Assembly: GCA_000092065.1 (NCBI GenBank)
Contig: CP000595.1
Direction: 5' to 3' (one strand)
DNA from: Ostreococcus lucimarinus
Lineage: Eukaryota
DNA length: 64,000 nt
Numbering within the stretch: the first letter of the stretch is position 1; each line of letters begins with the position of its first letter. Shown piece by piece: positions 1 to 29,977 of the stretch. The notes beneath the pieces are model-generated. The model was not told the origin of the DNA, searched no databases, and was given only the letters and a program-made list of their open reading frames with translations. The translations under genes were made by a program, and so were the position numbers.

Positions 1-3000
1 TCACCAGGCTGCCGTCGTCGACTACGCGAATCGCGTACTTCTCTAAAGGATTCTGCCGAACCAACGTGGTCGACGGAAAGAATCCGTAGAGTAATGGCGG
101 CGCCAAATAATAAAGCGTGATCGATGTCCCGTTGTTCAGCAGACCAACCTGATCGAGCGTTGCTGCCGTAATTTCGTCCACCGGTCGTCCAAATCTGTCG
201 ATTGATTTGTACCATCGACCTCTCCTACGCGTCGCCCAATCGCTTTGTGTGACGATCGGTTTCCACGTCAAGAAAAGTCTAAAGTATGGACCAGCGTCGA
301 CGTCGTAAGGCGAAAACGTAATCGGGGTCAAATCTGCATCTCCTAAGTCATCCGCCGCTCGGTCTCTATTCATCACCGCGTTCACCTCCATGTTTGCCAA
401 AAATGGGGGGTCATTCACAGGTCTGATCGTCACGTTGACTGAGGCGGACGCCGCGAGAGTCGAGTCGTAACTGGACACGATAGAGAACTCAATACTGTCG
501 GTCCCGGTGAAATTCGCGCTCGGCGTATAGTTGAAGTACTGAAAATTGAGATTTCCGTCATCAGTGTTGACAGAACAATTCCACCAATACTGCACCTCCA
601 CGTCATTGCACAGCTTTGTCACGGTGCCATTCTGCACGCCCGCATTCGTTACGGTGTAAGTTAAAGTGCCGGCATACTCCGAAGCCATGATCGTTCGCCC
701 GAATCGACCCGTCATTGTCGTATCTTCATCCACCCAATAGTGCGAGACTACGCCGACGGGCTTTCCGGTGGCGGATCCGACGGCTACGACGACGCTGGCC
801 ACGTCGTACAAAGTCGTATCGGGCGTGTTATCCAAACTGTCATCCACACTGTAAATGAAATAATCATACCCAGTAAAATTAATGTCTGGTATATACTCGA
901 ACGTCGACGAATAAGCGACGGGACCGGCCGGAAGCTCGAGGGTTCCGTGCGCCGGCTGTTGACGAATTGTCCACGTGAGTCTGTCGCCGTCGATATCAGT
1001 CGCCGTCATAGGGCGGCTCAACTTGCTGCCCGTCGCGGTCGCATCAACCTGCGTACGCATTGGAATAATATCAGCCGTTGACTCGTAGCTCAATATTTGC
1101 TCACCGCCCGCGGCGACTGGTGCGTCGTTGCGTTTCGCGATATCCACTCGCGCCTCCTTGATATCCGTCGTGCAGCTATTGTCGTACAACGCCAGCACGG
1201 CGGGACTACAATCGACTGTGCCATCGGTGTCGAGACCGAGCGCTTGTGCGACGGTATATTCAACCGTTCCGCGAAAGGTGAATACGTCTACGCCGTTTTC
1301 ATTCGGTTTGGGTTGATACGACACGACGCCGTATCCGGCGTTCATCTCGACTTGGAAAGTAGCCTCGACTGCTTTCCGAGGATCACAGACGGTGAATATG
1401 TTCGCCACAAACGGAATACCCGAGCGACTCGTGAACAAAGGGAGCTCTCGCTGCCAGAGAGGCCCATCTTCGTACGTGTAAAAGTTGACTACGTTTCCGG
1501 ACGAGTTGCTCGTCACCGCCAACTGCGTCGCGTACGTCACCGTAATCGATTCTAATGCTAGTATGTCCGTCGGTATGTGTCCTACTTGATCTGCGCCGAT
1601 GAACGTGGAGTCCGTCCCGAACGTTGCATTCGTGTTCACCGTGTTTTGCGCGTTCAGTAAATCAATCCATGCCGCTGGTGGCGGTGGTGGATACGCAGGC
1701 GACGGCGGCGGGCTGGGTGGCGGTGGGAACGGTGGCGGACTAAAGGGCGTGGGTGATGGTGGCGGCGGTGGTGATGGAATCCCCGAATCATTCTTTCTAT
1801 CCCACGACCAAGTCGACGCACAGAGCGATAACGAAAGTATGAAGAAGAAATACAGGCAGAAGATGATGACGTTGTCGCTGAAGATGTAACGCAAGCGCTT
1901 CAGTGCCTTCTTCTTTGACGTGTACTTGTGCGTCTCATGGTTGCCGCGAAGCTTCAGGTGCACGTGACACGTCTGTGCAACGTTGATTCCATCGCCTAAG
2001 CGCCAACCAGGATCGACGAGACATCCCAAATAGAACAAATCCACGCTGTCCGGATCCGGCTGATGTTTCAAGCGCCGACAAACCATTCGCTTCACCTTTT
2101 GGAAGTTGTCCGTCAACTTGCAAGTCAAGCTAATGGTCTGCATCTCGTTCACGTCATCGATGTTTCGCATGAAAAGTGAATCTCGCAACCGCACGATAGT
2201 GGGCAATCGGACCACCACGGTGCACGTCGGGTCTGGATGTCCTGAAATCGCCGCGATGATCGCGGCCGATAAGTACATGCCTAGGAAAAACAACAGCAAC
2301 CCCAGGAACACCAAAAACCCATCGTCTCTGCTCTCTACCGGACACTTCGTCGTATCCGCTGGCGCTATCACGCATTGTCCGGCGTTCAGCGACCCCGATG
2401 GACATTCAATGTAACTATACGGGCAACAGCCCGTCTTGTTCGTGTTCAACAACGCGTCCGGATAAGGATAACTCACCAAAGATTGCGACAGGCACGAGCA
2501 TGACTCTCCGGCGAACCCTAAATCGCACACACACGTGCCATCTCGCTCGGAGCAATAGCCGTTACCGTTGCAATCCACCGACGGCGAACACGAAAATTTG
2601 CACCGATTGTCCCCGACGCCCACCCATCCTCGATCGCACACGCAATCCTTCGCCGTGGCGTCCCACGTCCCGTGTCCATTACACGCGTCCCGACCGTTGT
2701 TCGTCGTGGTGTTGAACTGGCACAGACTACCCGTGAAGGCATCAGGGCAAATGCACTCCTTGCTCGTCGCCGCGCACACGCCGTTATTCTCGCACCCGCA
2801 CGTTGCGCACCCATCCCCAGTCATCGCCCCCACGCACGTCGGCGTCGGCGCACTGTACGTCCAATTATACGCACACGTTCTACACGGTCCGTTATACACG
2901 CTTCCGCTCATGCACGTCGACGACGCCGCGCACCATCCGCAGCCGTCCGCTTTCGCGCAGTGCTCCGCGTTCCCAATCGCCGCGCACCTCGGATCGCACG

Positions 3001-3439
3001 GTATCTCAATCTCATTCGTCACCGCGTTCACCACTCGCGGCGCGTTCATCACCGGCGGCAAATGCGACACGCACAGCGCGGCGTCGAGCAAGGAGTAGCA
3101 CGTCGGGTTGTGTCCGTCCACGTCGCGCGAGTCGCACCACCCGCACCCGACCTCCTGCACGCACTCCCCGAACACCGCCCGTCGCTGGCACCGCAGCGGG
3201 CTCACGATGCTCTCATCGCTCGCGTTCCACGCCGTGAGCGCGTCGTCGTGCGCCGCCTCGGTCGTTCGCACGCCGAGCGCGCGTCGCGCGTCGCGCGCGC
3301 GCGCGCCCCGAGCGCCCGCGGCTTCGCTTCCCGGCGCGCTCGCGCTCGAGCGCGGGCTCGGCGCGAGCGCGAACAGCGCGAGGGCGACGCGAACGAGCGT
3401 TCGCAATCGCGCGTCGCGCGCGCGATCGCCGACGCGCAT
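1..3439 (-). CDS. 5' part of a very large single-exon gene that continues past window position 1. It has a signal peptide, two PSI (GCGWC) modules, about 8 EGF/laminin-EGF-like Cys repeats, a TM helix, a ~110-aa loop, a second TM helix, a Pro-rich linker, then VNDPP cadherin-like/VCBS-type repeats
   Basis: Manual translation of the minus strand from the ATG at 3439-3437, which follows an in-frame TAA about 60 nt upstream. It reads MRVGDRARDARLRTLVRVALALFALAPSPRSSASAP...VGCGWCDSRD...DGCGWCAASSTC...CENNGVCAATSKECICPDAFTGSLC...CDRGWVGVGDNRCKFSCSPSVDCNGNGYCSERDGTCVCDLGFAGESCSC...FLVFLGLLLFFLGMYLSAAIIAAI...IIFCLYFFFILSLSLCA...SPPPPPSPTPFSPPPFPPPPSPPP...YFNYTPSANFTGTDSIEFSIVSS...RPVNDPPFLANMEVNAVMNRD. 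The frame was checked at several points between 3439 and about 360 and no stop was found. The ORF track omits it because no stop lies inside the window. Confidence 0.6.
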   Translation of the reverse strand, partial: MRVGDRARDARLRTLVRVALALFALAPSPRSSASAPGSEAAGARGARARDARRALGVRTTEAAHDDALTAWNASDESIVSPLRCQRRAVFGECVQEVGCGWCDSRDVDGHNPTCYSLLDAALCVSHLPPVMNAPRVVNAVTNEIEIPCDPRCAAIGNAEHCAKADGCGWCAASSTCMSGSVYNGPCRTCAYNWTYSAPTPTCVGAMTGDGCATCGCENNGVCAATSKECICPDAFTGSLCQFNTTTNNGRDACNGHGTWDATAKDCVCDRGWVGVGDNRCKFSCSPSVDCNGNGYCSERDGTCVCDLGFAGESCSCLSQSLVSYPYPDALLNTNKTGCCPYSYIECPSGSLNAGQCVIAPADTTKCPVESRDDGFLVFLGLLLFFLGMYLSAAIIAAISGHPDPTCTVVVRLPTIVRLRDSLFMRNIDDVNEMQTISLTCKLTDNFQKVKRMVCRRLKHQPDPDSVDLFYLGCLVDPGWRLGDGINVAQTCHVHLKLRGNHETHKYTSKKKALKRLRYIFSDNVIIFCLYFFFILSLSLCASTWSWDRKNDSGIPSPPPPPSPTPFSPPPFPPPPSPPPSPAYPPPPPAAWIDLLNAQNTVNTNATFGTDSTFIGADQVGHIPTDILALESITVTYATQLAVTSNSSGNVVNFYTYEDGPLWQRELPLFTSRSGIPFVANIFTVCDPRKAVEATFQVEMNAGYGVVSYQPKPNENGVDVFTFRGTVEYTVAQALGLDTDGTVDCSPAVLALYDNSCTTDIKEARVDIAKRNDAPVAAGGEQILSYESTADIIPMRTQVDATATGSKLSRPMTATDIDGDRLTWTIRQQPAHGTLELPAGPVAYSSTFEYIPDINFTGYDYFIYSVDDSLDNTPDTTLYDVASVVVAVGSATGKPVGVVSHYWVDEDTTMTGRFGRTIMASEYAGTLTYTVTNAGVQNGTVTKLCNDVEVQYWWNCSVNTDDGNLNFQYFNYTPSANFTGTDSIEFSIVSSYDSTLAASASVNVTIRPVNDPPFLANMEVNAVMNRDRAADDLGDADLTPITFSPYDVDAGPYFRLFLTWKPIVTQSDWATRRRGRWYKSIDRFGRPVDEITAATLDQVGLLNNGTSITLYYLAPPLLYGFFPSTTLVRQNPLEKYAIRVVDDGSLV

Positions 3440-3687
3440 GGCGCCGCGTTCTGCGGTCGACGCATCCGCGGTGCCGTTCAAATCGAGGGTGTTACGCCCT
3501 ATAAATATACGTGATACCTTAAAAACACACACACTACTAGGGTTTAACGCAGACCAAACGTTTATTTCAAACGCGGTCGAACGCGGTCGGCCGCGCGCGC
3601 GCGCGTCGCTCGCACAACTCCGCGCGCGCATCGCCGCGCCCCGAACGCGCGAGCGTCGCGCGACGCGGCGCGATCGGCGCGCGCGCG
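3440..3687. promoter_or_regulatory. Bidirectional promoter between the two giant genes. A TATAAATATA box at 3501-3510 sits in a short AT-rich island flanked by CGCG-rich DNA
   Basis: 248 bp separate the divergent ATGs at 3439 (-) and 3688 (+). The near-palindromic TATA element is about 62 bp upstream of the minus-strand ATG. cgcggtcg is directly repeated at 3573-3590. Confidence 0.45.
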
Positions 3688-3729
3688 ATGTCGACGCGGC
3701 GCGTCGACGCGCGCGCGACGACGACGACG

Positions 3730-3760
<31 letters not shown>

Positions 3761-6700
3761 AGGTGTTGGACGACGCGATGGCGACGGCGACGGCGCCGAC
3801 GCCGACGCGAAGCGCGCGAACGCCGAGCGCGTGGACGCGGACGGCGATGATCGCGATCGCGCTCTTCGCGGCGCTCGGCGGCGCGACGCCGGGCCGCGCG
3901 GCGTTCACGGCGGACGTGTGTTACGGCGCGTCGTGGGAGCCGACGGCGACGGCGACGAAGGCGTCCATAGGGAAAACCGTCAAACCGGTCACCGCGGTGC
4001 CGAAAGAGCACCCGCTGTTCGTGGACGCGTTCGCGAAGGCGTGCTTGGACGTGGGGAACGCGGCGGGGAACACGTCGGCGGCGACGACGGTGCGATTGCC
4101 GAAGCGGACGAACGCGGGGAACGAGACCTATTGGTCGAACGCGGCGGGGGCGTGCGCGACGTCGCCGACGGTGAGCGCGGGACAGTTGTTTTATAATCGA
4201 GCGGAGATGGGATCGACGTTGTCGTACGCGGATTCGAACACGGGACTGGAGAAGGATAAGACGGTTAGGATTGTGTTCGTGAACGACGACGGAAAGGGCG
4301 CGCACGTGGTGGTGTTGGCGGGCGCGAGGGCGGCGACGGGGTCGAGCTCTCCCGAGGTTGGGCTGATGATGGAGGGTGGTTCGTTGAAAAACTCGGCGAA
4401 CGTGGTGATAGAGGAACCTCGGGGATTGACGAACGTGGTGACGAGTGGAAGCGGATGCGACCCGTCGGTTTCGTCGGCGAGCGATTGCTACGAGTTGGAC
4501 ACGGATTTGGGTCTTGGCAAGTTTCGCTGGGGATCGGGATCGGATCAACGCGGTATCGTCATCGGCCACGTCGCCGATGTGAACTCAGAGTTTGCGATGA
4601 AGTTCACGCTGCTCGAACGCATCGATTCGGTGGAGATTGGGTCGTTTGACGACGCGACGTTTGCGATGTCGTGGGAGACGATTCCGACGGCGAGCGCGTT
4701 GAGAGGTTTCAAGATTCGCAGCGCAACTTGCACGAATCACTGCGCTTTGCACGCAACGTGCGCGTCGTGCGCCACGGATGACGCGTGCGGGTACTGCTCG
4801 GCGACGAAGACGTGCACGAAGATTGATGGTTCGTGCTCGAGCGGCTTCGACGTCATCGGCGAGTGCCTCGATACGTGCGGCGCGGCGTTGACGTGCGGCG
4901 AGTGCGCCGATCAGAGCGGATGTGGGTGGTGCCACACCACTGGTCGGTGTACCGCGGCGCAGCTCGACGGTAGTGCTCCGCAAGATGGTAATTGCTCCGC
5001 GTTTAGCGTGGGATCGAGCGCACAGTGCGCCACGTGTCCGGGCGCCGTCACCTCAACTATGTTGCCCGCTTACGTAGATGTCGACCGCGTCAGCGCGTTT
5101 TGCAACGGCAGGGGGACGTGTGATAACATCACGCGCACGTGTACGTGCTCGAGCGGTTACGGTGGAGACGGATGCGAGAAGATGTGCCCCGGCGGCGCGA
5201 GCAATCCGTGCTCGAGAAACGGTTTATGCGACTCGGCGTCGGGAAGTTGCTTCTGTAATCCTGGCTACGTCGGCTCGCGATGTAACGCCGCCACGATAGT
5301 CGGGACGTGCGAATGTGGCTCAGCGCACACATACTTGAAGTCGGACGGCACGCAGCAGCGCGTGTGCTCTGGTCGTCTCGATTCGAGCGGCTCGTGCGTG
5401 TGCCTCGAGGGATGGTCGGGTGTAAACTGCACCGTCGCGTGCGCCGGCACCTTGACCGTCGGCACCGAGGTGTGTGGTGGACACGGTACGTGCAATGTTG
5501 GAACCGGTCAGTGCGATTGTGAGCCGTGTTATTCGCGGGACGCCACTTCAGGGCTTTGCGTGCAAGACACTTGCTCAACGTGCGACTCTAGCAATGGAGT
5601 GTGTTCGTGCGTGAGCGGAAGTATGCAATGCGCCTGTCGGGGCGCCTTCGATGGGTACGCGTGCGATCAGTGCAAGTGTGGCGACCACGGTCGTTGCAAC
5701 GCACTCTCGGGCGAGTGCGAGTGCGACGCAGGATACGCTGGCGAGCTCTGTGAGCGACTCATTGAGCCGCAGCCGACGTGCGCCAACGGCGGCACCTGGA
5801 ACGCGGCCCTCAAGCGATGCGAGTGCGCGGGCGGATACACGGGCACTCTTTGCGATGCAGCGTGCACGACGAACCCGTGTAATGATCTTTGCAGTGGGCA
5901 TGGTACCGTGAACGTCGATGGGACCTCGTGTACGTGTTTCACTGGATTCTCGGGGAGCACTTGCAACACTTGCGCCACAGGCTACGGCCCGTATCCCAAG
6001 TGCGGCGCGACGCTTGCAAACGGAGAATGTACAGATAATATCGTAGCTTACACTGGGACCACAAACGTGACGATTTCGGGCAAACAGTGCCAGTCGTGGT
6101 CGTCCCAATCGCCGTTCGCGCACACGTACGCGTCGTCTTCGGGATCGACGAGCAATGAGTGTCGTAATCCGTCGTCTGACGCGCACCCGTGGTGCTACGT
6201 CGATCACACCGCCATCACCGGGTCGTACACCCGAGGCGAACCTCGATGGGAGTTTTGTTCAGTACCGACGTGTAAGTCGGCATACGTCAACCCACAGAAG
6301 ATTTGTGGCGTTTTCGGTGGTGAAACAGTCGTGACGTTTGACAAGGACTCCACCTCGGGAGCGCTCAACGCTGTCAGCCAACAGGCGCTGACGACGACGA
6401 ACGACGCAGTGGACAAGACGAACTGTGGCGCAATGAATCTGACTAATAACGATATCACCTTGCACGCGAACGCCGCGGCGCATGGAGACTTTGTCGCTCG
6501 GTTCGCCGAAGACTCCGGCACGGGTTATGCGAGACGCATCATCACGCACATCGGTCTCAAAGCATCCGTTTCGCCGGCGCACGATAGCGTCGAAGTGCAC
6601 GCCGATGGCACCGTGAAAGTCAACAGTGTTACCAAAACGAATGATCTGCCATACTCCGACGGCTCCACTGGTGTTTTGTGCGTGTCTGACTGGATGCCCG

Positions 6701-9700
6701 TGAGCTCGGGCTTGGCGAGCACGGAGCTTTTACAAATAACGATTTCAGAGACGACGGTGGCAAACATCACCAAGTTTACCGCTTGCACGGGATGCGCGGC
6801 GCAGCTCATCGTGGTCATAAGTGTCCCAAATAGTGTTACATCGACAGGCATATGCGCCACGGCGGGCTCGGCGACCAGCGTAAACTTCGACGAGAACGCA
6901 GAAGGAAGCGCGCCGTGGGGCGTCGGCGCGGCGCTCAACGCCGCTTGCGGGACCGACACGCACGACCCTGGTAGCGTCTCAACGGTGCAAGCGAAGTGGT
7001 GCGACCAGTGCCAGTATCTGGGTGAAGTGTACGATTCGTGCGTCGCTCAGATGGCGAACGAAGGGTTCAACTTTGCCCGCGCCGCCGTAATAGAGGGCTG
7101 TCGCATGGCGTTTGTGGCAATCTACGGATACGACCGCACGATTCCCTCATATCTCACGGCGACGGCGTCGACGGGCGCCACATTAGCGGACACCGTGTAC
7201 CCGTATAGAAGCTACACTCCGTCTGATGTGCAGTTTAAGTCACTCTCCGACAATCGCTTAGCTTTTGACGTGCTAGACGTCACGGAAACCTTGCCGGAAT
7301 ACATCGTCGGTACGACGAGAACGGATGGGTCGCGCACGCGAATGACTGGTTTGCCACGAGAGTTTACAGGCGAGACCGATACGACGCAAGTGTTCCCGTT
7401 CCCTAGAATTGAAGACTCGTGCAGAACCGCGAGTGATATAGGATCAACATCTGGGTATCGCGTGTACACTATGAATTACGCTTCGGCGACGGATGAAGCT
7501 CTGGAGATTACGATGTGCGGCTCCGCCACGGGAACCAACGTGGGCGTCTACACAAAAGACTTTGTAGACATCCCGTCGGCGGATTGGACGCACAATACTA
7601 CAAGTGCGAATGGGAATATCACTTTCACATTCACCCCGTGGATCGATGGCTTGGCCACGTATGAGGCTCGTTTCGAGTACTCTTTGGCGTCCACCAAGAA
7701 AAACGTGACGTTTGACGTCACTCGCACCTCTGCAAACGTCAACATTGGCTCGTTTGAATTCTACCCGCCGACGGCGTCGGATTCGTACGGCTCTGTTGGC
7801 TTTGAGTTTAGCGTTCCCAGTGCGGAAGCCGCCGCCACGGTTTCGTTCACAATGTCACCCACTGGCACTGGTGACTCAACGGCGGCGAACTCTGCGTTTA
7901 TCTCGCTTACCGCGGTTTTCATTCACGCGAAGAACTACGCGCAAGCGAGTTTGAATTACCCGCCATTCGGTGGGTTCAAGCAAGTCTCGTGCGCCAACTT
8001 CCAAGCGGCATCCTGTGGGTCGCTGAAGTTCACGGCGACGCAAAAGACATATTACATCGTCGTCTCTGGACAAAAATTCGTCTCGGGGGCGTACAGCATG
8101 CAAATAAAAAAGTTGAGCGCGGATTTGACAACCGTGTACACGGTGAGCAGCAACGCAGCGACGTCTTTGGTGAGGCCGTTGACGGGATTGGATGGCGCAG
8201 CCGATGGCACGTTGACGCCGTACAAGGTGGCAAAGTATGGCGATAATATTCGCGTCGTCGTGCGCGCGTCGCACGCAATAGATAGACCAAGAATCACGTT
8301 GGGCAATTACGCGGTTCCGAGCTCGAAGATTGTCTCTGCAGGTGCCGGCGCGGAGTATTCAGCGACGGTGACCGTCAGCGCTAGCATGGCGACTTCTGGA
8401 CACATCACGGTAAAGGTTGAGCAGGCGAGTACGCTCACCTCAGCATCGTATGGGTTTAAGACGTCCACTCATCCGTTGGGTTCTGACATCGCGCTCGTCG
8501 TGTTGGACAACACCGCGCCTACTGTCAGTCACGCCTGGGTCGTCAATCCATCCTACATGCTCGCGCCGTCGTCGGCGCCATCGTCCTGTACGAATCTTAC
8601 GACGTCCACGGGTAAGGATGTAAACGTTACGGCGGCAAAGTACGCAAAAGCGGGAGATTACATCGCCGTCATCTTTACGCCGTCGGAAAACGTCGCCACC
8701 ATCGGCGGTACCATCGGCGGTCAAGCTGCGACGAAATGGGTGCGAGCAACCGCGCCGCGCGACGTCACGCTCGCGATCGATGCTTATAAAATCACGATGT
8801 CCGCGGCCTACGTCGATGCCGCGTACGCGCTCGTCAATGACATCACACTCAGCGATGGAGTTTTACCGTTTTCCATTACGTTTACGGACGCCGTTGGCAA
8901 CGTCGGGACGACAATTAACTCGGCGATCAACTCCCTGACCGGTGTCACCGCGAGTTCACCTTTGGCCGATCGACTCAGCGCCGCTCGATTATTGTATGAT
9001 AAGTCACCACCGCGACCGGACTCATGGTCACTGAGGTACGCTAGTTCTTCGGAGATGACTGGGAACCAAGGTTCCAAGCCAGTGTATTATCACGGCTTTG
9101 ACAACGTGGCCTCGAGCGCCAAAGAGTATCGCATCGGTGACACGCTCGTATTAACTGGCACTTGGACCGAATATGTCTCTCGTCCGTACGGCGCGTACAT
9201 GCGCTCGAGCGCTTCAAGTGGCGTGCACGTTCCGCAATCAGCCATTACGATCACGGAGCAAGGCGGAAAACTCACCGGCAAGTTGGAGTGCATGGCGAAG
9301 GAGTTCCGTCCGCGAGCGCAAGAAGCCGTGAGCACCGCGCAAGGTTTCGGTGGAACCAGTTACGTGACATCGACATATCACAAATCATGGAAAGTGGAAG
9401 CGAACACGATCGATCCATGTGATATCGTCGGTAAAGGTGCGTTGGCGTGGAGCGCTCGCGCGGATTGCCAAGCGGAGCACTACGCCGGGAACTCGTTGTG
9501 GATTCCTCTCTGGTCTGCGTGGTGTCGTCACGGTTGGGGTACCTTGGGTTACGCCGTACTCGGAGGCGTCGACCCCGCTGGTAATTCGGCGACGGCGTTG
9601 CGCCAAGTGAGCAAATCTCCGAACAACGCCGACGCTACAGTTGTGATTGCCTCGTCCGCGGTGGCGGGCGACGCGATTATTCGCACGCCGATTCCCATCG

Positions 9701-12700
9701 CCGGGAAGATTGTGCCAAGCTGGATGAACTCAGTCCCTAGAGGTGACTGGACCGCAGACCCGAAGGTGATTGAAGTGTACATCGAGCCGCAAAACGTGAG
9801 ATGGAACGAGTATAGGCGCGTCGTCAAGGTTGGCGACATGCTGCAGATTCAATTCTACACTGACCAACCGGTGAAGGGCGTGCGCGCGCTCATCGGAGAC
9901 GATAAAGCCCTTCCGCCTGCGACACATTCCGAAGTCGCGAGCGCCATGAACGTCGAGCGACCGTGCTCAAGCGATCCGGACATGCAAACTTGGCTCGGCG
10001 CGCGCGGCTTGCTCGCGCTCGCCGCCGAAGAGTACAACGACGGATCGCAGTTTTCGAACGACGACGATTGGTTCGATTGGTTGGTTCAGACGTCTTACAA
10101 CTATCGCCAACCCGTGCCCAATGTGCCGAATTACCCCAACGCCGCTGTTACGTGCACTGGATTCTGGGTCCAACGCGGGTTACGACCCAACGGTAAGCGT
10201 TATTCGGTGCGCCGTTTGTGCCCGAATAGGTACTACTTGCGACGAAGCTCGTTCGCCGCTCAGGCGCCGCTTACGTGCTCGGATCCAAATGATCGAATCT
10301 ACAAAGCCACAGACGCGTACAACTATTGGGTGATCAACTTTAGATACGTCACATCGCATCAAGTCGTCAATGGCGACGGAGCGCTTCAAATCAAGTGGCA
10401 GTTGACCACGATGGACGACCGCGTGTTGCCGACGGGTGGCGGTTGGCAGACCTCTGCAGCCTTCTTCACCTCTGCGGACACCTCTGCGGATGTCAATCAT
10501 CTCAAACCAACGTCAACTGATGCCGTCGGCGCTGCGTTTGATCCCGCGATTAGCTGCGGGCGCAACGCGGATACCGCGTTCAATCAAGCCGGGTCGGCAG
10601 TCTGGGCCGTCCAAGATACGCTGGCGCCTTCGTGCGCGAGCTTTGTCACGGATGGTTCGTGCGCGAGCACGACTGTCGCCCGTGTCGCTAACAGTAGCGG
10701 TACGACGTTCCCCACCGTCACGAATCCGGCGACCAATGTCGCCGAGCACGTGGCCGTCGTTGGTGATTATATCACGCTCATCATCACTTTTGACGAGCAT
10801 ATTGCAGCTGGAGTGTACGTGACTTTGAACGACGGGGTTCTCACCGCTCGAGCGACGAAAGTTGACAAGTACTCGGCGACGTTCACCTTTGAGGTGACGC
10901 AGACGCTCGCGGCTCTGAATACGTTTTTGGAGTACAAAGTGTACAATCTGAAGGATATTCAGGAAGCGAACACGGCGACGGCGACGTTTACGACGAACGT
11001 CTTCAACGCTGAAAAGATTCGGTTGCAAAGCGCGAGCGAATTGACGGCGTTTTCGCTCACCAATGGCGCGTGCTCAACCACTAGTAACAACGTGAATAAT
11101 CAGTACGCCAAAAATGGGAATACAGTCAACGTCTCAGTGACGCTGCCGCTGCCACCGAGTAGCGCCAACACCGTGCTGACCATCCACGAATCCAAACTTG
11201 CGGGCGTCTACGTCACGCCGCCGACGCCCACATGCGTGGGTACACCGAATGCGTGCACGATAACCATGGCGCGTACGGTTGACAGTCTCTCAGCGGACTT
11301 CGTCGATGGTAGCGTCGTGTCTTGGTCACTGGTGGTTATCGGTACGACCAAGTGTGCGCACCACGCTTCAAGCTTGTGCATCACACGCTTCAAGCTCACG
11401 TCGTGTCGCCCGACGTTTGCGTCTGAAGTCGTCTTGGATTTTACGCCGCCGTCTCTGACTTCGGTGCGTTTGAGCGAGCCTGTCACCTCAGCCTCGCTCG
11501 TCAATGGCACTGGTCAAGTGAAAGTTGACGTCGTATCGAGCGAACAATTGTATACGCTGACGTACACATTGGATACGCGAGGCCCCCTGTGCACGTACGA
11601 CTTTGGCATGGTCTCCGCCCAGTCGATGACGTTGACGACGGATGGTACTCTCACGGGTACGCACACAAAAACCATCACCGCCACGTATAACTCCGCATCG
11701 CTTCATTGCGTGCTCGAAGTCATCTGTATCACGTTTGTCGGCGAAGATATGGCTGGACACAAGCTCACGAATCCGACGACGTGTCGAAGCTTTTCTCCGA
11801 CGGATTCCGAAGACTATCCAGGATGGTTCATGCTTCACAACGTCGGCACGGGCCCAAGTTCTGTCTCGCTCGCCCGACCTCTCGGGTTACACTGCATGGA
11901 TAGTTCCGTGGACACGCAGGCATGCGCTAACAGCGCAAGCGTGACTTCGACGACGCTCGAGTACGGGAATTATCTCGCTCTCGACGTGTCGTCGGGGTAC
12001 CCTATCGGCATTACTGACATTTCCGTGGACGGCCATTCCGTCTACGCGGCGACTGGCTTTGGCTCGTCTACGTTCCAAAATGATAACGCGTGGACGATCG
12101 ATTGCTCTGATTTGGTTCGCGACGACTTGTGCGTGCGCTTTGCCACGAGCGCGACGTGCCAGGCGTACTTATGCCCGACGTGCCAGTACGCCGGTATGTG
12201 TGACTTTTCGTGCGGCTACTGCGATAGCCGTCGAGCCTTCTCGAAAACTCACAAACTAACGCTGAAGACGACCGATTTCGGATTACCCGCGACCGATTTC
12301 ACTAACGAAGTCGTCACAGTTTCGTATCGAACGAATCCGGCGATTGCGCCGGCGGCGACGATGAACTCGACGGATACTCTTACGTACACGGCGCCCACGA
12401 CGAGTTCGTGTGCTGGTCGATGTGGAGGTACAGCGCCATCTGGCTGCGAATGCAACCCGACTTGCAAATCTCGGGGCACGTGCTGCGCTGATGCCGGCCA
12501 CTGTTGTACCGTCGGTTTGCCGTCCACAGGCGCTCTCAACGTCGACGGTGGATGTCTTCGACCAAACGCCGTGACGCTCAGCGTCACCAAAGAGTCTTGG
12601 GGGGTGGACACGAAAGGCGTGCGAAAATCTAACGTTAACCGATACTCCACGATTTACATTAAACTGACTGGAAACAAGCCGATTGACGTGCGACGTGTGC

Positions 12701-15700
12701 TCATCGGTGGCGTCCTTGTTCCAGATTCGGACGTCGCCATCGAGTACAACTCGCAGACGTCCGCGCGACAGTCTCTCAACGAAGCGCTCGTGGCGTACGG
12801 CAACGGCAATGATGCTCAGTTCACGTCGAAGAGTGCAGCGTTCGCGGGGAGTCTAGCGACCCTCCCAAGCGCTGCCTATTCGTGGGATGGCAATGAGTTT
12901 TCAATAGCGTTCCCGGACATTCCAAGTACGCTCGTCGCCACCATTCGCGTCAACGGCGCAAACCTGGTTCCGCAACCTGACGGCGCGTTGACGTATGAGG
13001 TAGTGTACCGCGAACGTTCGGGTGCGCCTTACTTTACGGACAACACCGAGCTCACCCTCACCGGAACTGGTCCGACGTGGTTGAATCCGCCGTCCATCTC
13101 AAGTGTCTCTTACGTTCTCTTGAACAGCAGCTCGACCTGCGACTTGTCCACTCCGGGCACACCGGTGACCGCGGCAGGCAACGGTTTGACAAAGATTGAA
13201 ATCGGTCATCAACTCCGAACCGTAGTGACGTTCAGTTCGCCGGTCGTCGTTCGCAAGTGGACCGTGGAAGGTGCGGAAACAAATTGCTACGGCACGTGTC
13301 ATCTCCACGGATTGTGCAAACTTGACCCGCACATTTTGCCGCCCGACGAACACGATGAAGCTGAATACATCACCACCTGGACGAGCTGCCGTACTTTCGA
13401 TGCCAAAGAAATGACCACACTCGAGAATCTTGAATGTGGTGTTCGCGAATTCATTCGCGCCGTCGACAGGTCAGGTAACCTCGTCATGGGTGAGCGATGG
13501 AACAACTTGTATTGCTTCACATTGCCGCCGGCGATTCCGAGTCAAGGTTTGATAAAAGTACGCGGTCTAACGTCTTGCTACCGAAGTACGACGACGAAAA
13601 AGTTTGGCCCAGGTTGTATCGCTACCATCCACATCGAAGCCGACGGCGAAATCATGGAGCCAACGGTGAAGTGGTGGAACACAGCGACCAACGCGTACGC
13701 AAACTTTCCTTCTGCGTGCGTCATGACGGCGACGGATCCGACGTCTCCAAGCTCGTTGGTTTGGACACTCACATGTGCGGGTACAGCCGCGGCGACATTC
13801 CCACCCAGTAACTCTTACACGTTACAGCTTGAAGTCAGCGACGTGCGAGCCACGGACGAGTCAACCTTTACGGGCACGGCGCGAGACACGGACGACGGAT
13901 ACCTAGGCTCAGACAAGGACCCGATCATCGTCGATAACCTCGCACCCACGCCGACTGCCACTGTCCCGCTTTCGTGTGCGTTAGTCATAGGAAGCCAATC
14001 TACGATAACCGTCACGTATGCGGTGGAACCATCATGGCGCCCGACTGTGAGCGCGTTTGGCGCGCAGGTTGGCGGCGTCATTGCGCAAACCGGCGCGTTG
14101 AGCGGATTTCACACCGTTTGGATTGCACCGATCACAGTCCCCTCCGACTGGTTAGGCGGTAGCCCGATGCCTTTCGTGATTACGAACGGCGAGGATGAGT
14201 ACGGCAACATCGACACGACGTCGCACGGGAACTACTTGTCCAATGACAACGTGCTCACTGGGGATGTGAATTGTTCAGTGAATGTCGATGCGCCGCGAGT
14301 CACGTCTGCGACGTGCGCTAGCCCGTCACCGAGGGTCGTCAAACCAGGCGGAAGTGTGACGGTTGATTTCTCCACCAATGTTGCAGTGACGATTCCGTCG
14401 GGTTGCGTCAAGATTTCCGGTGTCACGGTGACGCCCACGGATCTGGGAGGCTCGAAAAAGAGCTGGAGAGCCACGGCGACCATTCCGTCAGACCCCCCCG
14501 CTTGCGACGGCGAAGTCGCTCTCAGCATCTGTGCTGAAATCACCGATACCGGAAATAACACCGGCGTTGAAGTAGTAACGCAGTTTTTTGGCCCCGAAAG
14601 CGAAGCTTGTCTCATCGACGGCACAGCGCCGGTGCTACAGTTGATTGATTTCACCAGCGACAACACGTACGATTCAAAACTGGCCACCGTCGGTGACACT
14701 GTTCGACTGTACTTTGAAGCGAGCGAAATGATCACCGCGCCTACAATTACGCTATTCGCGACCGCAACGCCGTCTGCAACGGCGGTTGAAACATCGGGAC
14801 CGAGTCGTCGACGATTCCCATCGACGGTGCTTAATGCAGGAGGAACGCAGTACGCGACAATATGGACGGCTGAATACGTCGTCGACGGGACCACGCCGGT
14901 AGGCGCGCTCACATGGGATGCGACTGGATTCATGGATCGCGCGACGAATGATGGCACTAAAAGTGCGTGCGCGGATTGGAACCCGCCATCTTGTTCAATC
15001 GTGCACGCTGCGCAGACGACTGCGCAACGAGCTCTCGAACCAAGTATCAACTTTGTCGGCGACGTCGTTCAAACGTTCAACAACTTTTTGACGACGTCAC
15101 CGAGCGGTAACGTGTCCACACTGTTTTCGTGCTACGCCAACTCATCATCGACATCGCTGTCGGCGTTAAATCTGGCAATCTTGAAGACAGATTTGTCGCG
15201 GCACGATATCGTCGCTGGTGGGATATTCCAACATCATCTCATGACGGCTCAAGATTTGTGGTGGCAACGCGGTGGCGCGTGTGGCACCGCCAATGGTCTC
15301 ATGTGTCGGTCGACATGCGGACGGTGTAACGATGCCGCCGTCGTGGTACACCGCACGACAACCACGCTCACTGTTGCAAACGTCACCGCCGGTGGTACCG
15401 CCATTCCGGGAGACCAATGTCCAGGAGGTGTGGGTACGTGCATGTGCAACCCAACGCTCGGCGATCAATCCGAAGCCCGCTATATCGTGAGCACCTCGGC
15501 CCGCGATCTTGTCTCGAAACCAACCATCAGATTTAACGACACTAGCGGCACGGTGTATACCGTACCCGAGGCCAACATCGTGGCGGTGAGTCCTGTCATG
15601 TGGCCCACGCTCCCGACGGTGGATTGTCTGTCCGAATCGACGGTGCGCGACGGCGTCTGCGACCCATCCGCCACGTTGAACAATCGCGACGGATGCTGGG

Positions 15701-18700
15701 ACGGTGGCGATTGCTGCCAAGACACGTGCCGGCAAGTCTTTAGTGACGGCGCATATTGCCAGGCGCAAGATTGCCGGGATCACTCAATCTCACCAGTGAC
15801 AGGGCGACCGACATCTGGGTTCTGGAGCTCGTACAACGCCAAGGCGCTCGTCGCTCGGGAACTCTCTGTGGAGTGGAAGGTGACGTTTCCAGTAGATGAC
15901 ACTCTTCCGTTGATTGATGGCGTTCTCACCGGTACCGCGTGCTGCATGCAAGACAAGAGCGGCTTGGACGTGTTGCACGCAAATAAGGGTACATTCGTCG
16001 CGGGTGCGCCGTGCCTGGACGCTGTCTTGACTCGCGACACGAGCTGTTTGCTTCGCGCCGCGCTTACGGCGGACAACGGCGAATTCGTCGTCAAGGAAAA
16101 CCAGCCCGTATCGCTTACGCTCGAATTTGAAGGGAACCCTCGCGGGATGAATTGCACAATCGGCGGCGAATCGGTGACGATGACGCAGACACGCGCCGCG
16201 AGCTCTGGCGTCACCGCGCTGTGGTCAACCACACGGACTTCGGTGAATGCAGTCGACACCGCGATTGCGACGCGCATTGCGGCGTCTGAGGAGCAGAAGC
16301 GACGTCACGAACTTTTGCCCGAGGTTTTCGAATTAAATCTGTGGGCGAATTGTTCACGAGGCGTCACGATTCCGTTTGAGTGTTCCATTTCGGATTGCGG
16401 TGGCAACTTGTTTGAGATTACCGACGCCGTCGACCCGACTTCAGATGTGTGCTTTGACTACGTGCGCCCGGACGCGACCAGCATTGGGCAGACGAGTTCG
16501 AACACGTGCAGCAACGCATACGCCAAAGTTGGCGATACGCTGATACTCAACGTTACGATGGATGCGGACGTTTCCAATCCCACTGCGTACACCCTCGCTG
16601 GCGAAGCGTGCACGTTGAGAACTTTCGGTACGAATGCGTTTACGTGTGACGTCGTCGTGTCGTCGACGACGATTGAAGGACCCGCAAACTTCACGTTTGA
16701 CGGCATCAAAAGCTCTGTGCCCGCGTATCTCGACGCCGTCAACACGAGCTACACTGAACTGAAGACGTTATCTCCAGATGGCGTCGTCACGCTCGGTGGG
16801 GATCGCGTCATCATCGATCGGACTGCGCCGACTTTTGACTCTTTGGCGATGTACAGCCTCGAAGTCGCTAACAAGACGTGTCAGAAGCGGTGTACCGTTC
16901 GCGTCGCCATCGACGCCGCGGAAGAGTTGAGTAGCTGCACGGCAACTATCGGTGGCATCACTGCAAACATCACCGGCACGGGCTCCGAACGCGTGGCGGA
17001 GGCGTACATTGATGAGAACAGTGGTATAGCGGCGGGCGAGATTACCTTCTCCGTCATCTGCCTGGATCTCGCGTGCAACTCGGTGACGACATCGACGCTC
17101 GTTGGTGATACGGACGCCGTGATTTATTCTTTAGACCGGGACATTCCATTGGAAGTCTTGTTCTACAGCGATCGACCGGGGCACTTGGAAATTGGGAACG
17201 AAAACGACTGTCTCATGATGGAGATGAGGTTTCTTCTCGCCGTCGAACTGAAAGCCATCGTCATGGGCAATATTACGAACAACGCATTGAGTCTGTGGAA
17301 CATCACCACAACCGGTGGCGCCTTGGTAGTCCCGGGTACGACCCACACCTATTATCTCATCACTCACTGCATCACGGATGCGTGGGGTACGGAGGACTGG
17401 CCAGTCGTTCCTTGGAGTTTTACGTACGACGATGGATTGCAAGACGTTGTGTGGAACACGACTTTTACGTCTGACGTAAACTTTCCGCGAGTGGTCCGAC
17501 TCGATTTGGAAGACCCAGTCGCGACGTACGTCTACGCCTTCACCACTGGCGCTAATGATCCATCGGCTGGTCTCGGCGACGCGCTGTACTTGGATATCAT
17601 CGCCAGCGAAGCAGTTGTGGCGCCGACGGTGACGTTTGGCGGCGTAACGCTCAACGCCACCGATGTCTCGCAAGTGGGTACGTCTAGCGAGTGGCGCGCG
17701 GGTCCCTACATCGTGAAGAATTCGACGGATGACCCGAACATTCTGAAGGATATCAACGATTGTTTCTTATTCAGCGTGACGCTGAAGGACTTAGTCGATC
17801 ACACATCCATATTGTACTCGCAGCAAGTCAACGCCACGGGCTCGCTCAATTGCGTCACGCAACGCGTTGACATTGATCAAGATGCGCCCACCATCGTTTG
17901 GTTGCAAACTGAGTACGTCACCGCTACCACCGTAGACTTTACCTTTGCCGTAGACGAACTCTCCAACGTCAGCTACGTCGTCTTGCCGAGAGGTGCGGTG
18001 GAGCCGACGCCTTTGGAAGTTCAAGCAGGCACCGGAGCAGCGGGTACTGGCGCTGTGGCCAGCGGTGTTAAGGAATATCTTGGATCATCCACGCCTTCTC
18101 CGGGAGCTGGTGCGGGTGGCAAGGGCCAAGATGTGTTAAACATCACTGGTCTTCTCGCGGGTACGAACTACGACGTATGGTTCGTGCCTTTCGATCGATT
18201 CGGCAACTCCCAAACCGAGGCGCAAAGTCGATGGATACGAACCGTTGGGTTGGACATGCTCATCAACTCGCTTGCGACGCAAGAGGGCGGTTACACGGAT
18301 GTCATTCAGGTGAAGCTCACGCAAGTCCCGACCGCAGATGTTTCGGTGACGATCAGTGAACGCAGTGGTATCGGGAACGTCGTCCTCGTTGATCAGGCGC
18401 TGAGTCTTACGGATTACGTCTCCTCGGTGACGCTAGTCTTCACGCCCATCACGTGGAACGTAGCGCAAGAAGTCGGTGTCAAGGCGGTTGATGACATTTA
18501 TGTCGAAGATCAACACACAGAAGAGTTGAAGTTTGACGTACGATCGCTTGATGTACGCTATGACGCGCTCGTCGATCCAAACCGTACGGTCGTCATCGCA
18601 GATAACGACGAGTGTGGCGTCATCGTGTATGACCCCAACAATCGACCCTTGGAGCGCACTCTCTCGTGCAGCGCGAATGCAGTGATCGCTTTGTTGAACT

Positions 18701-21700
18701 ATTCCGTCGCTGAAGATACGACGGTATACGCAGATATCTACTTGCAAGCGGCGGTGCGAGGCGATGACGTGCGCGTGACGCTGACGAGCTCTGATTTGAC
18801 GCAAATTTCATCTCCAGCGTCCGTCACTCTGACGTTCAACGAAACCAACTACAATTTGGCGCAACGTGTCCCAATCATTCCGGTGTATTCGTGCGTCGCC
18901 GCGCTTGATCGCTACGTTCCGATCGCAGTGAGCGTAGAATCCGCGACGACGTGCGGCGATCTCGTCGTACCAGAAATTCCTGTGTACGTGACAGATTTGC
19001 AAAAGGTTGGATTAGCGTTTACCAAGGCGCAAATCACCGGCCCCCCCGGGAGCAACTACGAGTTTGACATGTATTTAACGTCTCAACCGACATCAGACGT
19101 TCAAGTGTCCTTAGCAACGCTACCAGACGCTTTCGGAGCCGACTTGTACGGCAGCGCGTCGTTCAATTGCGGTGCCCAAGGTCCTGTTTGGACGTTTAGT
19201 GCTGATGAGTGCTCGGTGCCGGTGACTTGCATCGTCACGCTCGTCGGCGACGACACCAAGTGCGGAGATGTGACGTTGCAAGTTGGCGCCAAAGTCACTT
19301 CCTTGGATTCAATGTACAACGGCATCTCGAGTTCGCCGCCGAATATGACCATCCTCGAAACCGCCAACGCCGCGGGATGGTACATTCGAAATGCTGACAA
19401 CACAGAATTCATCGTGACGCCGCCAGATGCGCCAAACGGCACGTTGCCGCTCGAACCGTGGAAGGTGAATGAACAGATTGAAACGGGTATTTACACCATC
19501 ACACCGACTACGGCGTTGTGCAAAACAGTGACCCTTCGACCGTATATTCCAGACACAGATTACGCTCGATACGCCACCATCTCTCCGAGACAGGTGACAC
19601 TTGAGGCTGGATTCTTTGGTCCGACGAAGTTCAAAGTCATCTTCCCGCGTAACTACAACGTGCCCGTGACGAACGACATCGTTCAAATTTGGCACGATGT
19701 GGTGTACGGCACTGATGATCCGGATTACCTCGCATTGAGCCCGAATCTCGGTGGTAGTGCCCTGCCGGTCGAAATCGTCGAGTACGACGTCGCCGGTTTA
19801 TTGCTCGGCAACGGCGCGGAGAACACTGTTCTCATCGATGAGCCGTGCTCGACAGATGTGACGACACAGGTCTCATCTTTGGGATTCACGCTGTCAAGTG
19901 CACCCTCTGCAACTGTCGTCGTTTCGCTCAGCGAAATGAATTACAACGCGACTCAACTCGCGATTCTGAAGGCGAATAAACACCTTGTGTTGGGGACAAC
20001 GTCGCTGAGTTTTACGCCCAACAATTGGAACATTCCGCAGCCGGTGATGGTCTCCGCCATCAGCTATGACAACCTGACGGAAGCCCGCACGGCATATGTA
20101 TGTGGAGATATGACTTCAGATGATGATGTGTATCAAGCACTGAATCAAACGTGCTACCCCGTGCATATTTGTGATTGCTCCGGTTCATGCGGTCTCATCT
20201 CGTTTGATGATCACGCGAATTGTACTTTCGCCGCTGACCAATTAAACAACACGGAGATAACGTTCCCGCCTAGTATGAAGCAACTTTCATCTTGTTGGAA
20301 CATCAGTGCCACCTGTGGCGGTATTCAGGTCGCGAGTTTAAGCGCTGCCGGTCACGATCCGGTCATGACGAACTTTACGACGCTGCCAGATTCTGAAGCG
20401 TACTCGGTGAGTTTGGACAAAGTACAACGGTTATTTTACACCACGCAGTGGTCTGTCATCGATAAACTCGAGCTACCGCTATCGCTAATCGATGGTGGTA
20501 TGCAAGGCTTGACGGACGCTTCTGGTACCTATTGCCTCGGTATCTCATCATCGAGCTTTGTCGTCAACAACACAGCCAATGGTGGCTTGTTTGTTGAAAA
20601 GGCCGCCCCGATGAGCGCCTTTGCGAATTCTTTCGAAATCCTCCCGGCAGCGGCGAATACATTTGATTCGGACGTGTACATCCTTGAGGTGAGAGTTCTT
20701 GCCGGTGCATCGCCGTTGACTGATTCGTATTCGCTCAATTGCACGGATGGAGGCAACTTCTCTGCACCAGGCGGATGTATCATCGGTCCCAGTCTTCGAG
20801 GGTATTTCAATAACGCAACGCAAGTCATGACGTTCACGAACACGGCATATCTCCCGGAAGCAGATTTGGCCAACGCAGCTGGTAGAAAATTACTTGGAAA
20901 GTACCCATACCCATCACAACGCCGTCGCCTGTTGCAGGCACCGGCTGCACCGGCTCCTGCATCGACTTCTCAATTTGTGTGGGCTGTGAACAACATAACG
21001 TTTTCGGACATCAGTCTAGATCCCACCGGTGCGACGCGAATGATGAACACTCGAGTGGTGGATCAGTTCGGGGCCATCGTCGAAGGACCAATTCTAAATA
21101 TCGATACCGAAGGTGTGAACGATCCACCGATTATCGATATCGACTTGCCGCTCATTTACACAGAGAAAGAGAGTCTGACGCTCAACGCACCGCTTCAAGC
21201 CTATGACGTTGACAATTATAATTGGACGCAGTGTGTCGTGAACATCACGGATATCGCAAACAACTTCATGGCTGGAGATACATTCTCGTATAACAAAACG
21301 GCAATCGTCGAATACTATCAGTATTGGAACACATCTTTGCCAGCCGGTTTCGTGGACATTGACGCCACGTTCACCGACTCTCAGCGTACAGTGACTTTCG
21401 CCGGCCTGGCGCCGCCGGCGGCGTACTTGCGTGCGATGCGAAACCTGGTGCTGTTGAATGCTGGACCGGCAATGACAGCGGATGATCGATACATCATGTT
21501 CTGCTGTCAAGATCCGGAAGCGCTCAACAACAAAGGGTGCGGTTTGCAACGTGTTGTGTTCCAACCCGTCAACGACCCCCCGCTAGCTGAGAACAAGATT
21601 GTGTATCTTGCTGATCCTCGCGTCGGAGGGTTAACCGGTGAAACTGTTCCAGGATCAGATCCTGATGGCGATACGTTCACGTTCAATATTTCATGCTTAC

Positions 21701-29800: not shown

Positions 29801-29977
29801 CGTGCTAAATTAAAAGACAGCGAGCTGAGTGCTGACGATAGGCGAGTAGTGTACGCTGCGGCGAGCGCGATGCGCGCGTTGGCGGTGAAGCACGACGCGA
29901 ATGCCGCGCGATTGCGCGCGTCGAGAGACGTCGCGGACGTCGTCAGTCGATTGTGCGAAGGCATGCGATTAGAGTAG
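26891..29977 (+). CDS. NRPS-like adenylation (AMP-binding) plus carrier-protein didomain enzyme with C-terminal ankyrin and armadillo-like repeats
   Basis: IAYTSGTTGKCKG (A3 core), YLTGDRGYIDDAGDLYLRGRLDRQVKIRGHRVELDEIEAAL (A7/A8 cores), FDALGGTSLNVLAVSKAL (phosphopantetheine-site-like GGxS), then ANK repeats (THVAAARGNSEMLEMLLAAGAPAGAKDADKQTICHLAVRSGD) and an ARM-like tail. Confidence 0.75.
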   Translation: MNPGMSPPTLDAALRRNARERPSAIACVLVPNAREKNRKCFFTWDELHGVVDALARVLRADRHPRVLSFCRDGVEAFVALHACARARKSLVNVDAATPASRIRDVARDANATTCLCANDGDEDSVKSVLGEDGVAVRVWEVINAGAEAIEAEEDETREDDEIWIAYTSGTTGKCKGAAATHRRAMAYARAKCEVEEIDACSRVCLASNATFDLWHGDACAAAAAGAAVVVASRATFQHDFARVLREGEVTHVCCTPTMFSLARLPRGIVDAPKLRCVSLAGERMRESTIALWADDVALYNVYGATETTVVQTYARMRNAEDESTNRAGKAYEGFASVFVVDEMREGELAVQSFAQRRGVEGEVAIGGICVADGYLNDPERTARAFVHSPFGTVYLTGDRGYIDDAGDLYLRGRLDRQVKIRGHRVELDEIEAALRSCPALCDDAVVFYDANEGVLTSHARAASPTFDASSDADLYAFALERVVELRLPRHMVPRRHVFIEHARWPLTSSGKTNRQILLQWFASGETKAFRPKREKPQAGLETVVANAWAVALGHGDASDIGALDAFDALGGTSLNVLAVSKALASDDGIVRSRDTARGEIVREARIGLRDGEAAALLNDGEEPAACAFDVIDGPFAPCEIFARPVLRDYVDYLRAQGIDADVNAPASTAVEPQRDTSANRRMLAACGRGVAPVVRALLATGVEASGEHLRAAAASLADEAVDVVQTLLAAGADASSSSATAGTLATHVAAARGNSEMLEMLLAAGAPAGAKDADKQTICHLAVRSGDVSTVRVAANACKHLKTRKGGLESWDRWKRTPAAWALVAGSSEILAELRDAGANLTSLETDVSNAWVHGSLSAKSEVQLAHRPVRKRGAAAEVLSALAARLDAANVESERIEAATAIRELVCANAENREKARTIGLVPKLCELARDRHCVEAIGALRNLATNTSAAGAAGDAGAMEILGDVIRARAKLKDSELSADDRRVVYAAASAMRALAVKHDANAARLRASRDVADVVSRLCEGMRLE

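Follow-up and report, generated by a model that had tools for sequence, protein, structure and literature searches.

No free-living eukaryote is smaller than Ostreococcus, which lacks a cell wall. Because there is no wall, its few very large surface proteins are leading candidates for mediating contact with viruses, grazers, bacteria and mates. Ubiquitin fused in-line is known to direct the sorting of membrane proteins. For a ubiquitin-like domain (UBL) flanked by transmembrane (TM) helices, the nearest known precedent in architecture is TMUB1, which has three TM helices and a UBL facing the cytosol and is linked to receptor recycling (PMC2474703). Here, a 64,000-nucleotide stretch of Ostreococcus lucimarinus DNA (contig CP000595.1; the window) was analysed for a long minus-strand reading frame in its first 3439 positions, which lies head-to-head with a gene for a 7684-amino-acid (aa) protein (the giant neighbour). 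Taken as a whole, the results are probably best explained by a polytopic membrane protein of surface receptor or adhesion type, with a cytosolic ubiquitin-like loop, that shares a modular ancestor with the giant neighbour.

Coding potential and extent of the gene

The reverse complement was translated from the ATG at 3439-3437. All 1146 codons to position 1 were free of stops, and the remaining five frames across 1-3439 held 21-54 stops each. From the base composition of 1-3439, the chance of zero stops in 1146 codons was calculated as ~6e-20. GC at codon positions 1, 2 and 3 was 0.53, 0.51 and 0.68 in this frame, and the third-position value compares with 0.65 in the giant neighbour. A stop-free frame from this ATG to position 1 had been claimed in an earlier sequence-only reading of the same DNA, together with plus-strand open reading frames (ORFs) at 740-1081 and 1097-1555. 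Both claims were borne out, the plus-strand ORFs lying antisense to the conserved coding frame. Its description of the gene as hidden reflects an artefact of the ORF list, which omits ORFs running off the end of the source, and not biology. The genome that contains the gene has long been publicly available, and common module types make up what that reading noted; the practical lesson is that ORF lists which drop edge-running ORFs conceal real genes.

The frame was extended past the window edge using metagenome contigs. A 34-base pattern from the edge matched seven Joint Genome Institute (JGI) metagenome contigs, which were >99.7% identical to the window, with 0-9 differing positions in overlaps as long as 3700 bases. 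In the contigs the frame runs 5615 bases further, and window 3439..1 joined to L011 261..5875 forms a single ORF of 9054 nt with no intron. Premature stops were found in 0 of the seven contigs, and the window part differed from them by 3-7 synonymous and 2 nonsynonymous changes (D753N and V1087M). The product falls in a 139-member cluster of the protein collection, with lengths of 3015, 3048 and 3114 aa, all of them gene calls that begin at an in-frame ATG further upstream (3634). Five other ORFs of the window are exact matches to public proteins, including XP_001421780 and XP_001421785 (O. lucimarinus CCE9901). The window is thus nuclear DNA from a picoeukaryotic green alga whose genome is rich in GC and poor in introns. 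On the minus strand, 1-3439 covers the first 38% (5′ end) of a protein-coding gene that has no introns and whose full product has ~3017 aa.

The ortholog in an Ostreococcus-like genome (L001, 72% nucleotide identity) is collinear with aa 15-1146 at 71-78% amino acid identity; two frame changes in it were attributed to errors of long-read assembly. A second ortholog, P0105 (contig L012, 135-8846), is a single 2903-aa ORF with 62% identity and the same module order end to end. A distant relative on L013 and L014 (GC 0.61), possibly from another genus within Mamiellales, is collinear over aa 85-2621 at 32-48% identity. GT-AG introns interrupt this relative at L013 1634-1857 and about 840-1055, where the Ostreococcus genes have none; one of them, AT-rich and 224 nt long, splits the UBL. 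Full-length relatives were found in protein and contig searches solely in Ostreococcus-like and related algal contigs, a restricted distribution that fits a lineage-specific protein. No literature was found on this O. lucimarinus gene or on its architecture in Ostreococcus.

The ratio of nonsynonymous to synonymous substitution (dN/dS, Nei-Gojobori) between the window and L001 was 0.13 overall, with synonymous sites saturated. Segment values, TM1-UBL-TM2 included, were 0.09-0.32, with the exception of the signal region at 0.77. The gene is under purifying selection. An in-frame intron or a fusion of two genes at the TM-UBL-TM-poly-Pro segment was considered and rejected on the protein-level conservation of this segment in three orthologs and on its constraint.

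Spurious long ORFs do arise in GC-rich DNA, and the minus-strand frame stays free of stops even through the spacer and into sequence antisense to the neighbour, as would suit an ORF open by chance, a pseudogene or an artefact of assembly. Such an origin is already refuted by the ORF, dN/dS, contig and Pfam tests and has practically no probability left: against it stand the chance value and the dN/dS given above, a frame intact in seven independent contigs and three diverged orthologs, and Pfam domains that score above their cut-offs.

Membrane helices and the ubiquitin-like segment

Two strongly hydrophobic helices, TM1 and TM2, are separated by a candidate UBL that the sequence-only reading had missed. 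The sequence of TM2 varies among L001, P0105 and L013 but remains hydrophobic in all three. When the UBL was searched against the PDB with phmmer, nearly all matches were ubiquitin, single chains from E 3e-3 and polyubiquitin at 1e-28 through summed repeats. A profile built from four orthologs matched ubiquitin-type chains only, with diubiquitin at E 2e-6 and single chains at E ~1e-3. Comparison with ubiquitin and NEDD8 in hhalign gave a probability of 78% and an E of 1.8e-5. In this alignment the ubiquitin core positions I13, L15, V17, I23, V26, I30, L43, L50, L56, I61, L69, L71 and L73 are hydrophobic in the UBL. Ile44 is replaced by Phe. The proportion of nonsynonymous differences (pN) in the UBL was 0.13 against L001, synonymous sites again being saturated. 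The lone Pfam match of the isolated segment was UCH_UBL1, below cut-off at 17.4 bits (E 0.0048). We read aa 406-499, with moderate confidence, as a ubiquitin-like domain. It would not be of the conjugatable type, as the domain is internal and an exposed C-terminal Gly-Gly is absent.

The end of the UBL also bears on how the product might be processed. Deubiquitinase cleavage normally requires Gly76. A precursor cut after the UBL would yield two membrane proteins, one comprising the signal peptide, PSI and EGF modules, TM1 and UBL and the other running from TM2 through the cadherin-like repeats onward. The ubiquitin-type tail gives this idea its footing: HLKLRGG in P0105 and HLKLRG-N in the window align with LRLRGG of ubiquitin. 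The second Gly, however, is present in P0105 alone of the four orthologs, the window reading RGN, L001 LGN and L013 RLHN, and the UBL is immediately followed by a basic segment, itself conserved, and by TM2. Cleavage of the precursor is thus considered very unlikely, and the UBL is treated below as part of one continuous chain.

Cysteine-rich and cadherin-like modules

The N-terminus carries a hydrophobic stretch at aa 15-27. The signal region is poorly conserved, yet every ortholog is hydrophobic just ahead of the conserved LTAWNASDES. Both Cys-rich modules that follow have the C-G-W-C core of PSI type and lack the usual preceding C-x2-C. The curated Pfam cut-off for PSI (PF01437) is 23.1 bits. 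Scanned alone, module 1 reached 12.3 bits with PSI (E 0.23) and 13.9 bits with PSI_integrin (E 0.046), and module 2 reached 19.3 bits with PSI (E 1.5e-3, profile positions 1-45 of 52), all below cut-off; in the whole-protein scan there was no PSI match at E<=1. For the EGF-like repeats, aa 201-319 scanned alone gave EGF_2 (PF07974) at 42.1 bits in 3 stretches (cut-off 22.1) and EGF_Teneurin (PF23106) at 36.7 bits (cut-off 24.3). EGF families remained at 17-19 bits, below cut-off, in the whole-protein scan.

C-terminal to TM2 and the Pro-rich linker, a Pfam scan of the conserved segment aa 589-763 gave no family match. The repeats after it scored 41.1 bits with Big_9, 36.2 with Cadherin_4 and 27.5 with Cadherin_5, all of which pass the Pfam cut-offs (23.6, 25.1 and 26.5). 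An exhaustive search of 1.84 billion representatives gave 4087 matches. Besides the orthologs, the matches read were bacterial repeat adhesins, and the others listed hit aa ~790-1045 in many repeated units. Classical Cadherin (PF00028) was absent from every Pfam scan of the product. From their VNDAP boundaries and DxDGDxL motif, the repeats classify as bacterial-type cadherin-like domains and not as classical cadherin.

Most modules listed in the sequence-only reading were therefore recovered: the hydrophobic stretch of a signal peptide, the EGF repeats (as a segment scanned alone), the two TM helices (aa 375-398 and 524-544) and the poly-Pro linker (a Pro-rich stretch at aa 555-588) are all present. 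Two of its assignments held in part. The two GCGWC motifs exist, and the modules around them are PSI-like, both falling short of the Pfam cut-off for PSI, whereas EGF passes its own; the refuting outcome named in that reading, a lack of Pfam matches for PSI/EGF, thus came true by half. The VNDPP repeats, with PVNDPP at aa 1007-1012 and their Pfam matches, are cadherin-like in the bacterial Big_9/VNDAP sense and not in the classical one.

Continuation beyond the window

In the continuation on L011, Ephrin_rec_like (PF07699) repeats scored 25.2 bits in 2 stretches (cut-off 23.1); the ortholog in L001 scored 22.5 bits. About 8-10 hydrophobic helices follow at aa 1384-1750. Near the C-terminus are about seven CPNC...CPxC zinc-ribbon units, with weak LIM, double-zinc-ribbon (DZR) and RING-like similarity only. 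A 99-bp tandem repeat near the 3′ end (L011 4934-5182) encodes a 33-aa CPNC...CPRC unit of this kind. Its copy number varies among near-identical contigs (L005, L009 and L011 were compared), L011 having 2.5 copies and L005 one additional copy, so that products of ~2951, 2984, 3017 and 3050 aa result, counted from ATG 3439. Part of this variation may be collapse of repeats in short-read assemblies. For two thirds of the product there is no match to any known family.

Relationship with the giant neighbour

The sequence-only reading had presented the two genes as paralogs with the same module types. In the giant neighbour PSI scores 26.6 bits, above the 23.1 cut-off, and EGF repeats are many. The two proteins share, in the same order, a signal-like N-terminus, PSI-type and EGF modules, VNDPP cadherin-like repeats, Ephrin_rec_like repeats and a multi-helix domain, with 24-33% identity in the shared parts. 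They differ in that the neighbour has ~5000 more residues in its ectodomain, together with a Kringle and a partial Ion_trans, and lacks TM1-UBL-TM2 and the zinc-ribbons.

Comparison by blastp aligned aa 1171-1491 with 6542-6840 of the neighbour (E 2e-14, a match that covers Ephrin repeats and extends into the first membrane helices), aa 159-356 with 612-801 (E 2e-14) and aa 148-315 with 348-533 (E 1e-13). Two more collinear TM motifs, GL[ED]C..D[FY]..R and LYP[IV]G[FL]F, were matched at E 1e-3 and 2e-3. Scores were compared with 300-500 composition-preserving shuffles (500 for the membrane domain), and the real score was never reached: the Ephrin region stood out most (z 21), followed by PSI/EGF (z 10) and the membrane domain (z 5.3). 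The claimed kinship is thus well marked in the Cys-rich modules and weak in the membrane domain, where hhalign limited to this part gave a probability of 5.5% and an E of 0.007.

Modules of the PSI, EGF, Big_9 and Ephrin_rec_like types are mobile and occur widely. The two proteins might have acquired these promiscuous Cys-rich and Ig-like modules by independent shuffling and be neighbours by coincidence in a gene-dense genome. The weak comparison of the TM domains alone and the features found in only one of the two proteins are in keeping with this. Against it are the shared order of PSI, EGF, cadherin-like, Ephrin_rec_like and TM domain, a best blastp match that enters the first TM helices, the two further TM motifs, a TM-domain score above 500 of 500 shuffles, and an adjacency that is kept in L001. 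Independent shuffling is regarded as unlikely. Distant paralogy is preferred because four module types occur in the same order and some similarity lies outside the promiscuous modules; on these sequence comparisons, the two genes are probably distant paralogs.

Several features of the giant gene were recorded in passing. Its Kringle (window 5998-6297, plus strand) scores 56 bits in this green alga; most known Kringles belong to proteins of animals. Its Ion_trans match (25486-25854, plus strand; 47 bits, E 2e-12) covers profile positions 1-112 of 241 only and resembles one half of a voltage-sensor-like domain, including an S4-type helix rich in R/K. The combination of an adhesion-type ectodomain with a channel-like module recalls the design of polycystin-1. 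The gene starts with a (GAC/CGA)n trinucleotide run (3718-3760, plus strand) encoding TTTTRRRRRRRRRR, just before a signal-like segment. Together, the minus-strand gene and the giant occupy ~32 kb of a ~13 Mb genome.

Topology and proposed role

The loop between TM1 and TM2 contains 0 N-X-S/T sequons and 20 Lys plus Arg residues. The segments flanking it contain 4 and 10 sequons, and the first of them has 38 Cys. This distribution of sequons, charge and Cys fits an out-in-out path, with the UBL in the cytosol and the Cys-rich and Ig-like segments outside.

The following course of the chain is proposed. Ectodomain 1, comprising both PSI-like modules and the 3-4 EGF repeats, would be exported from the cytosol by means of a signal peptide. 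TM1 would cross into the cytosol, where the putatively ubiquitin-derived domain of ~95 aa, lacking Lys48 and Lys63 equivalents and usually Gly-Gly, would form a loop, and TM2 would bring the chain back outside. There, a Pro-rich stalk would bear ectodomain 2, made up of the conserved segment, about three Big_9/cadherin-like domains bearing Ca motifs, and the Ephrin_rec_like Cys repeats. The chain would next enter the multi-helix membrane domain and continue as a cytoplasmic region of ~900 aa followed by the CPNC...CPxC zinc-ribbon run, the zinc-ribbon tail being expected in the cytosol. The product would be a polytopic membrane glycoprotein whose ectodomains bind ligands, acting as a receptor or adhesion protein on the surface of a picoalga that has no wall. 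Its built-in ubiquitin-like loop may be a permanent site at which trafficking or quality-control machinery that binds ubiquitin can dock. The gene and its 7684-aa neighbour would descend from a common modular ancestor and be transcribed divergently from a short spacer.

Several points weigh against this interpretation. The sequence and profile matches of the UBL are of moderate strength, and Pfam ubiquitin (PF00240) did not match the isolated segment at E<=10. AlphaFold2 (AF2) models of the UBL were of low confidence: the single-sequence model, with a predicted local distance difference test (pLDDT) score of 39, had four strands and one helix in the order beta-beta-alpha-beta-beta, and the 3-sequence model, at pLDDT 56, had further short helices and strands. 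A Foldseek search of these models against the PDB gave nothing significant (best E 0.45). Signal peptide and topology were assessed by eye and from hydropathy alone, and the 3′ two thirds of the gene were taken from metagenome contigs and not from the reference genome. The membrane domain and the ~900-residue cytoplasmic region had no Pfam family and no PDB sequence match, and the signalling part of the mechanism is therefore guesswork. To these is added the weak hhalign result for the membrane domains of the two neighbours.

The protein might instead act in an internal membrane, the endoplasmic reticulum (ER) or Golgi, with its UBL recruiting factors of ER-associated degradation (ERAD) or of the p97/proteasome system, like TMUB1 or HERP. 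That TMUB1 is the nearest architectural precedent speaks for such a role (PMC2474703). About 1300 aa of PSI-like, EGF, Big_9 and Ephrin_rec_like sequence, with 14 N-glycosylation sequons in the window part, are however typical of exposed ectodomains, and an ER-retention motif was not found at the C-terminus when this was read by eye. An internal location is accordingly rated improbable, and a surface protein is preferred.

A more speculative history is put forward as a tentative idea, which we would not expect to be right. A copy of a ubiquitin gene may have been captured in a giant surface-protein gene in an ancestor of Mamiellales and long retained, persisting as a cytosolic loop that separates two ectodomains. 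The loop would then act as a permanent, non-removable 'ubiquitin tag' that sets receptor trafficking, endocytosis or turnover with no E3 ligase, and species with an RGG tail might split the precursor. If true, a membrane-flanked UBL wired into a receptor would offer a compact experiment of nature on sorting that depends on a ubiquitin signal. Gene targeting works in O. tauri.

Feature coordinates, start codon and gene arrangement

Table 1. Features of the minus-strand gene and its surroundings, in window coordinates
Feature	Position	Strand	Remarks
About three Big_9/Cadherin_4/Cadherin_5 repeats	1..1150	-	aa 764-1146; RNDAPV, DIDGDRLTW, PVNDPP; ORF continues past window
Conserved ectodomain segment	1151..1675	-	aa 589-763; dN/dS 0.085
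Pro/Ser-rich linker	1676..1777	-	aa 555-588; presence conserved in orthologs, sequence variable
Transmembrane helix 2	1808..1870	-	aa 524-544; Kyte-Doolittle peak 2.48; basic KKKALKRLR just before
Candidate ubiquitin-like domain	1943..2224	-	aa 406-499; ends HLKLRG-N; predicted cytosolic loop
Transmembrane helix 1	2246..2317	-	aa 375-398; Kyte-Doolittle peak 2.47; hydrophobicity conserved in orthologs
EGF-like repeats, three to four	2492..2836	-	aa 202-316; EGF-type Cys patterns; dN/dS 0.12
PSI-like Cys module 2	2873..2998	-	aa 148-189; GCGWC at aa 166-170; eight Cys
PSI-like Cys module 1	3071..3190	-	aa 84-123; GCGWC at aa 98-102; conserved in orthologs
ATG and signal-peptide-like N-terminus	3335..3439	-	aa 1-35; basic n-region, then hydrophobic VALALFALAP, then SSASA
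Spacer between the two divergent start codons	3440..3687	.	248 bp; AT-rich core 3497-3575 (GC 0.38); TATAAATA at 3500-3507
Divergent 7684-aa neighbour	3688..26742	+	PSI, EGF, Kringle, Big_9/cadherin-like, Ephrin_rec_like, multi-TM, partial Ion_trans (Pfam)

The minus-strand frame is open upstream of 3439 to beyond 3739, into the antisense of the 5′ end of the neighbour, with an in-frame ATG at 3634. The ATG at 3439 directly precedes the signal-like segment, and the start codon in L001 lies at about the same position. ATG 3634 was rejected as the start on three grounds: it would render the AT-rich, TATA-like core of the spacer coding, the extension is unconserved in L001, whose frame is closed upstream, and the hydrophobic signal-like segment would come to lie ~80 residues into the protein. 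Prokaryotic gene callers run on metagenomes begin at 3634, adding 64-65 spurious residues (P0090, P0091 and P0094).

The head-to-head layout with a 248-bp gap, as claimed in the sequence-only reading, agrees with the distance measured to the giant ATG at 3688, and the order of the two genes is kept in L001, another Ostreococcus. Sequence comparison of the window with L001 found no conservation of the spacer. In the compact genome of O. lucimarinus, intergenic spacers are usually short. A shared bidirectional promoter within the spacer is plausible.

Elsewhere in the surroundings, a retinoblastoma-family homolog (RB_A, RB_B) is encoded at L011 10142-13366 on the minus strand, ~4 kb past the 3′ end of the gene. 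Other neighbouring genes, including window 26891-29977 and 30015-33374, encode an AMP-binding enzyme fused to ankyrin repeats and a glucan-water-dikinase-like protein.

Comparison with known systems

The new elements of the gene are two ectodomains joined by a membrane-flanked, putatively ubiquitin-derived loop, an arrangement conserved beyond the genus, and the large share of the protein, two thirds, for which nothing known is a match. Its cadherin-like repeats resemble those of bacterial Big_9/Cadherin_4 adhesins (RTX/VCBS-type, for example P0106) in their VNDAP boundaries and D-x-D-G-D-x-L motif, with 33-40% identity. The bacterial adhesins are secreted and contain dozens of near-identical tandem copies, whereas the algal protein has about three degenerate units within a polytopic membrane protein.

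Integrin beta, plexins and polycystin-1-type receptors likewise have membrane-adjacent PSI/EGF modules or combine a huge modular ectodomain with a multi-helix domain. This resemblance is one of design only: the algal protein is without Sema, integrin beta-I, REJ/GPS and PLAT domains, its PSI modules stay below cut-off and lack the usual CxxC, and Pfam and PDB sequence searches found no homology for its membrane domain.

With ubiquitin, the algal UBL shares the core hydrophobics, His68 and an L-x-L-R-G tail, at 30% identity over 69 columns. It differs from ubiquitin in being internal to a polypeptide, in an insertion of ~18 residues after strand 1, in lacking Lys48 and Lys63 equivalents, in having Gly-Gly in one ortholog only, and in escaping PF00240.

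The nearest counterparts by architecture, and by architecture alone, are TMUB1, TMUB2 and HERPUD1, in which flanking TM helices likewise anchor a non-conjugatable UBL on the cytosolic side of the membrane (for TMUB1, PMC2474703). Those proteins have ~250-400 aa and no ectodomains, whereas the algal module is set between two large ectodomains of a 3000-aa protein.

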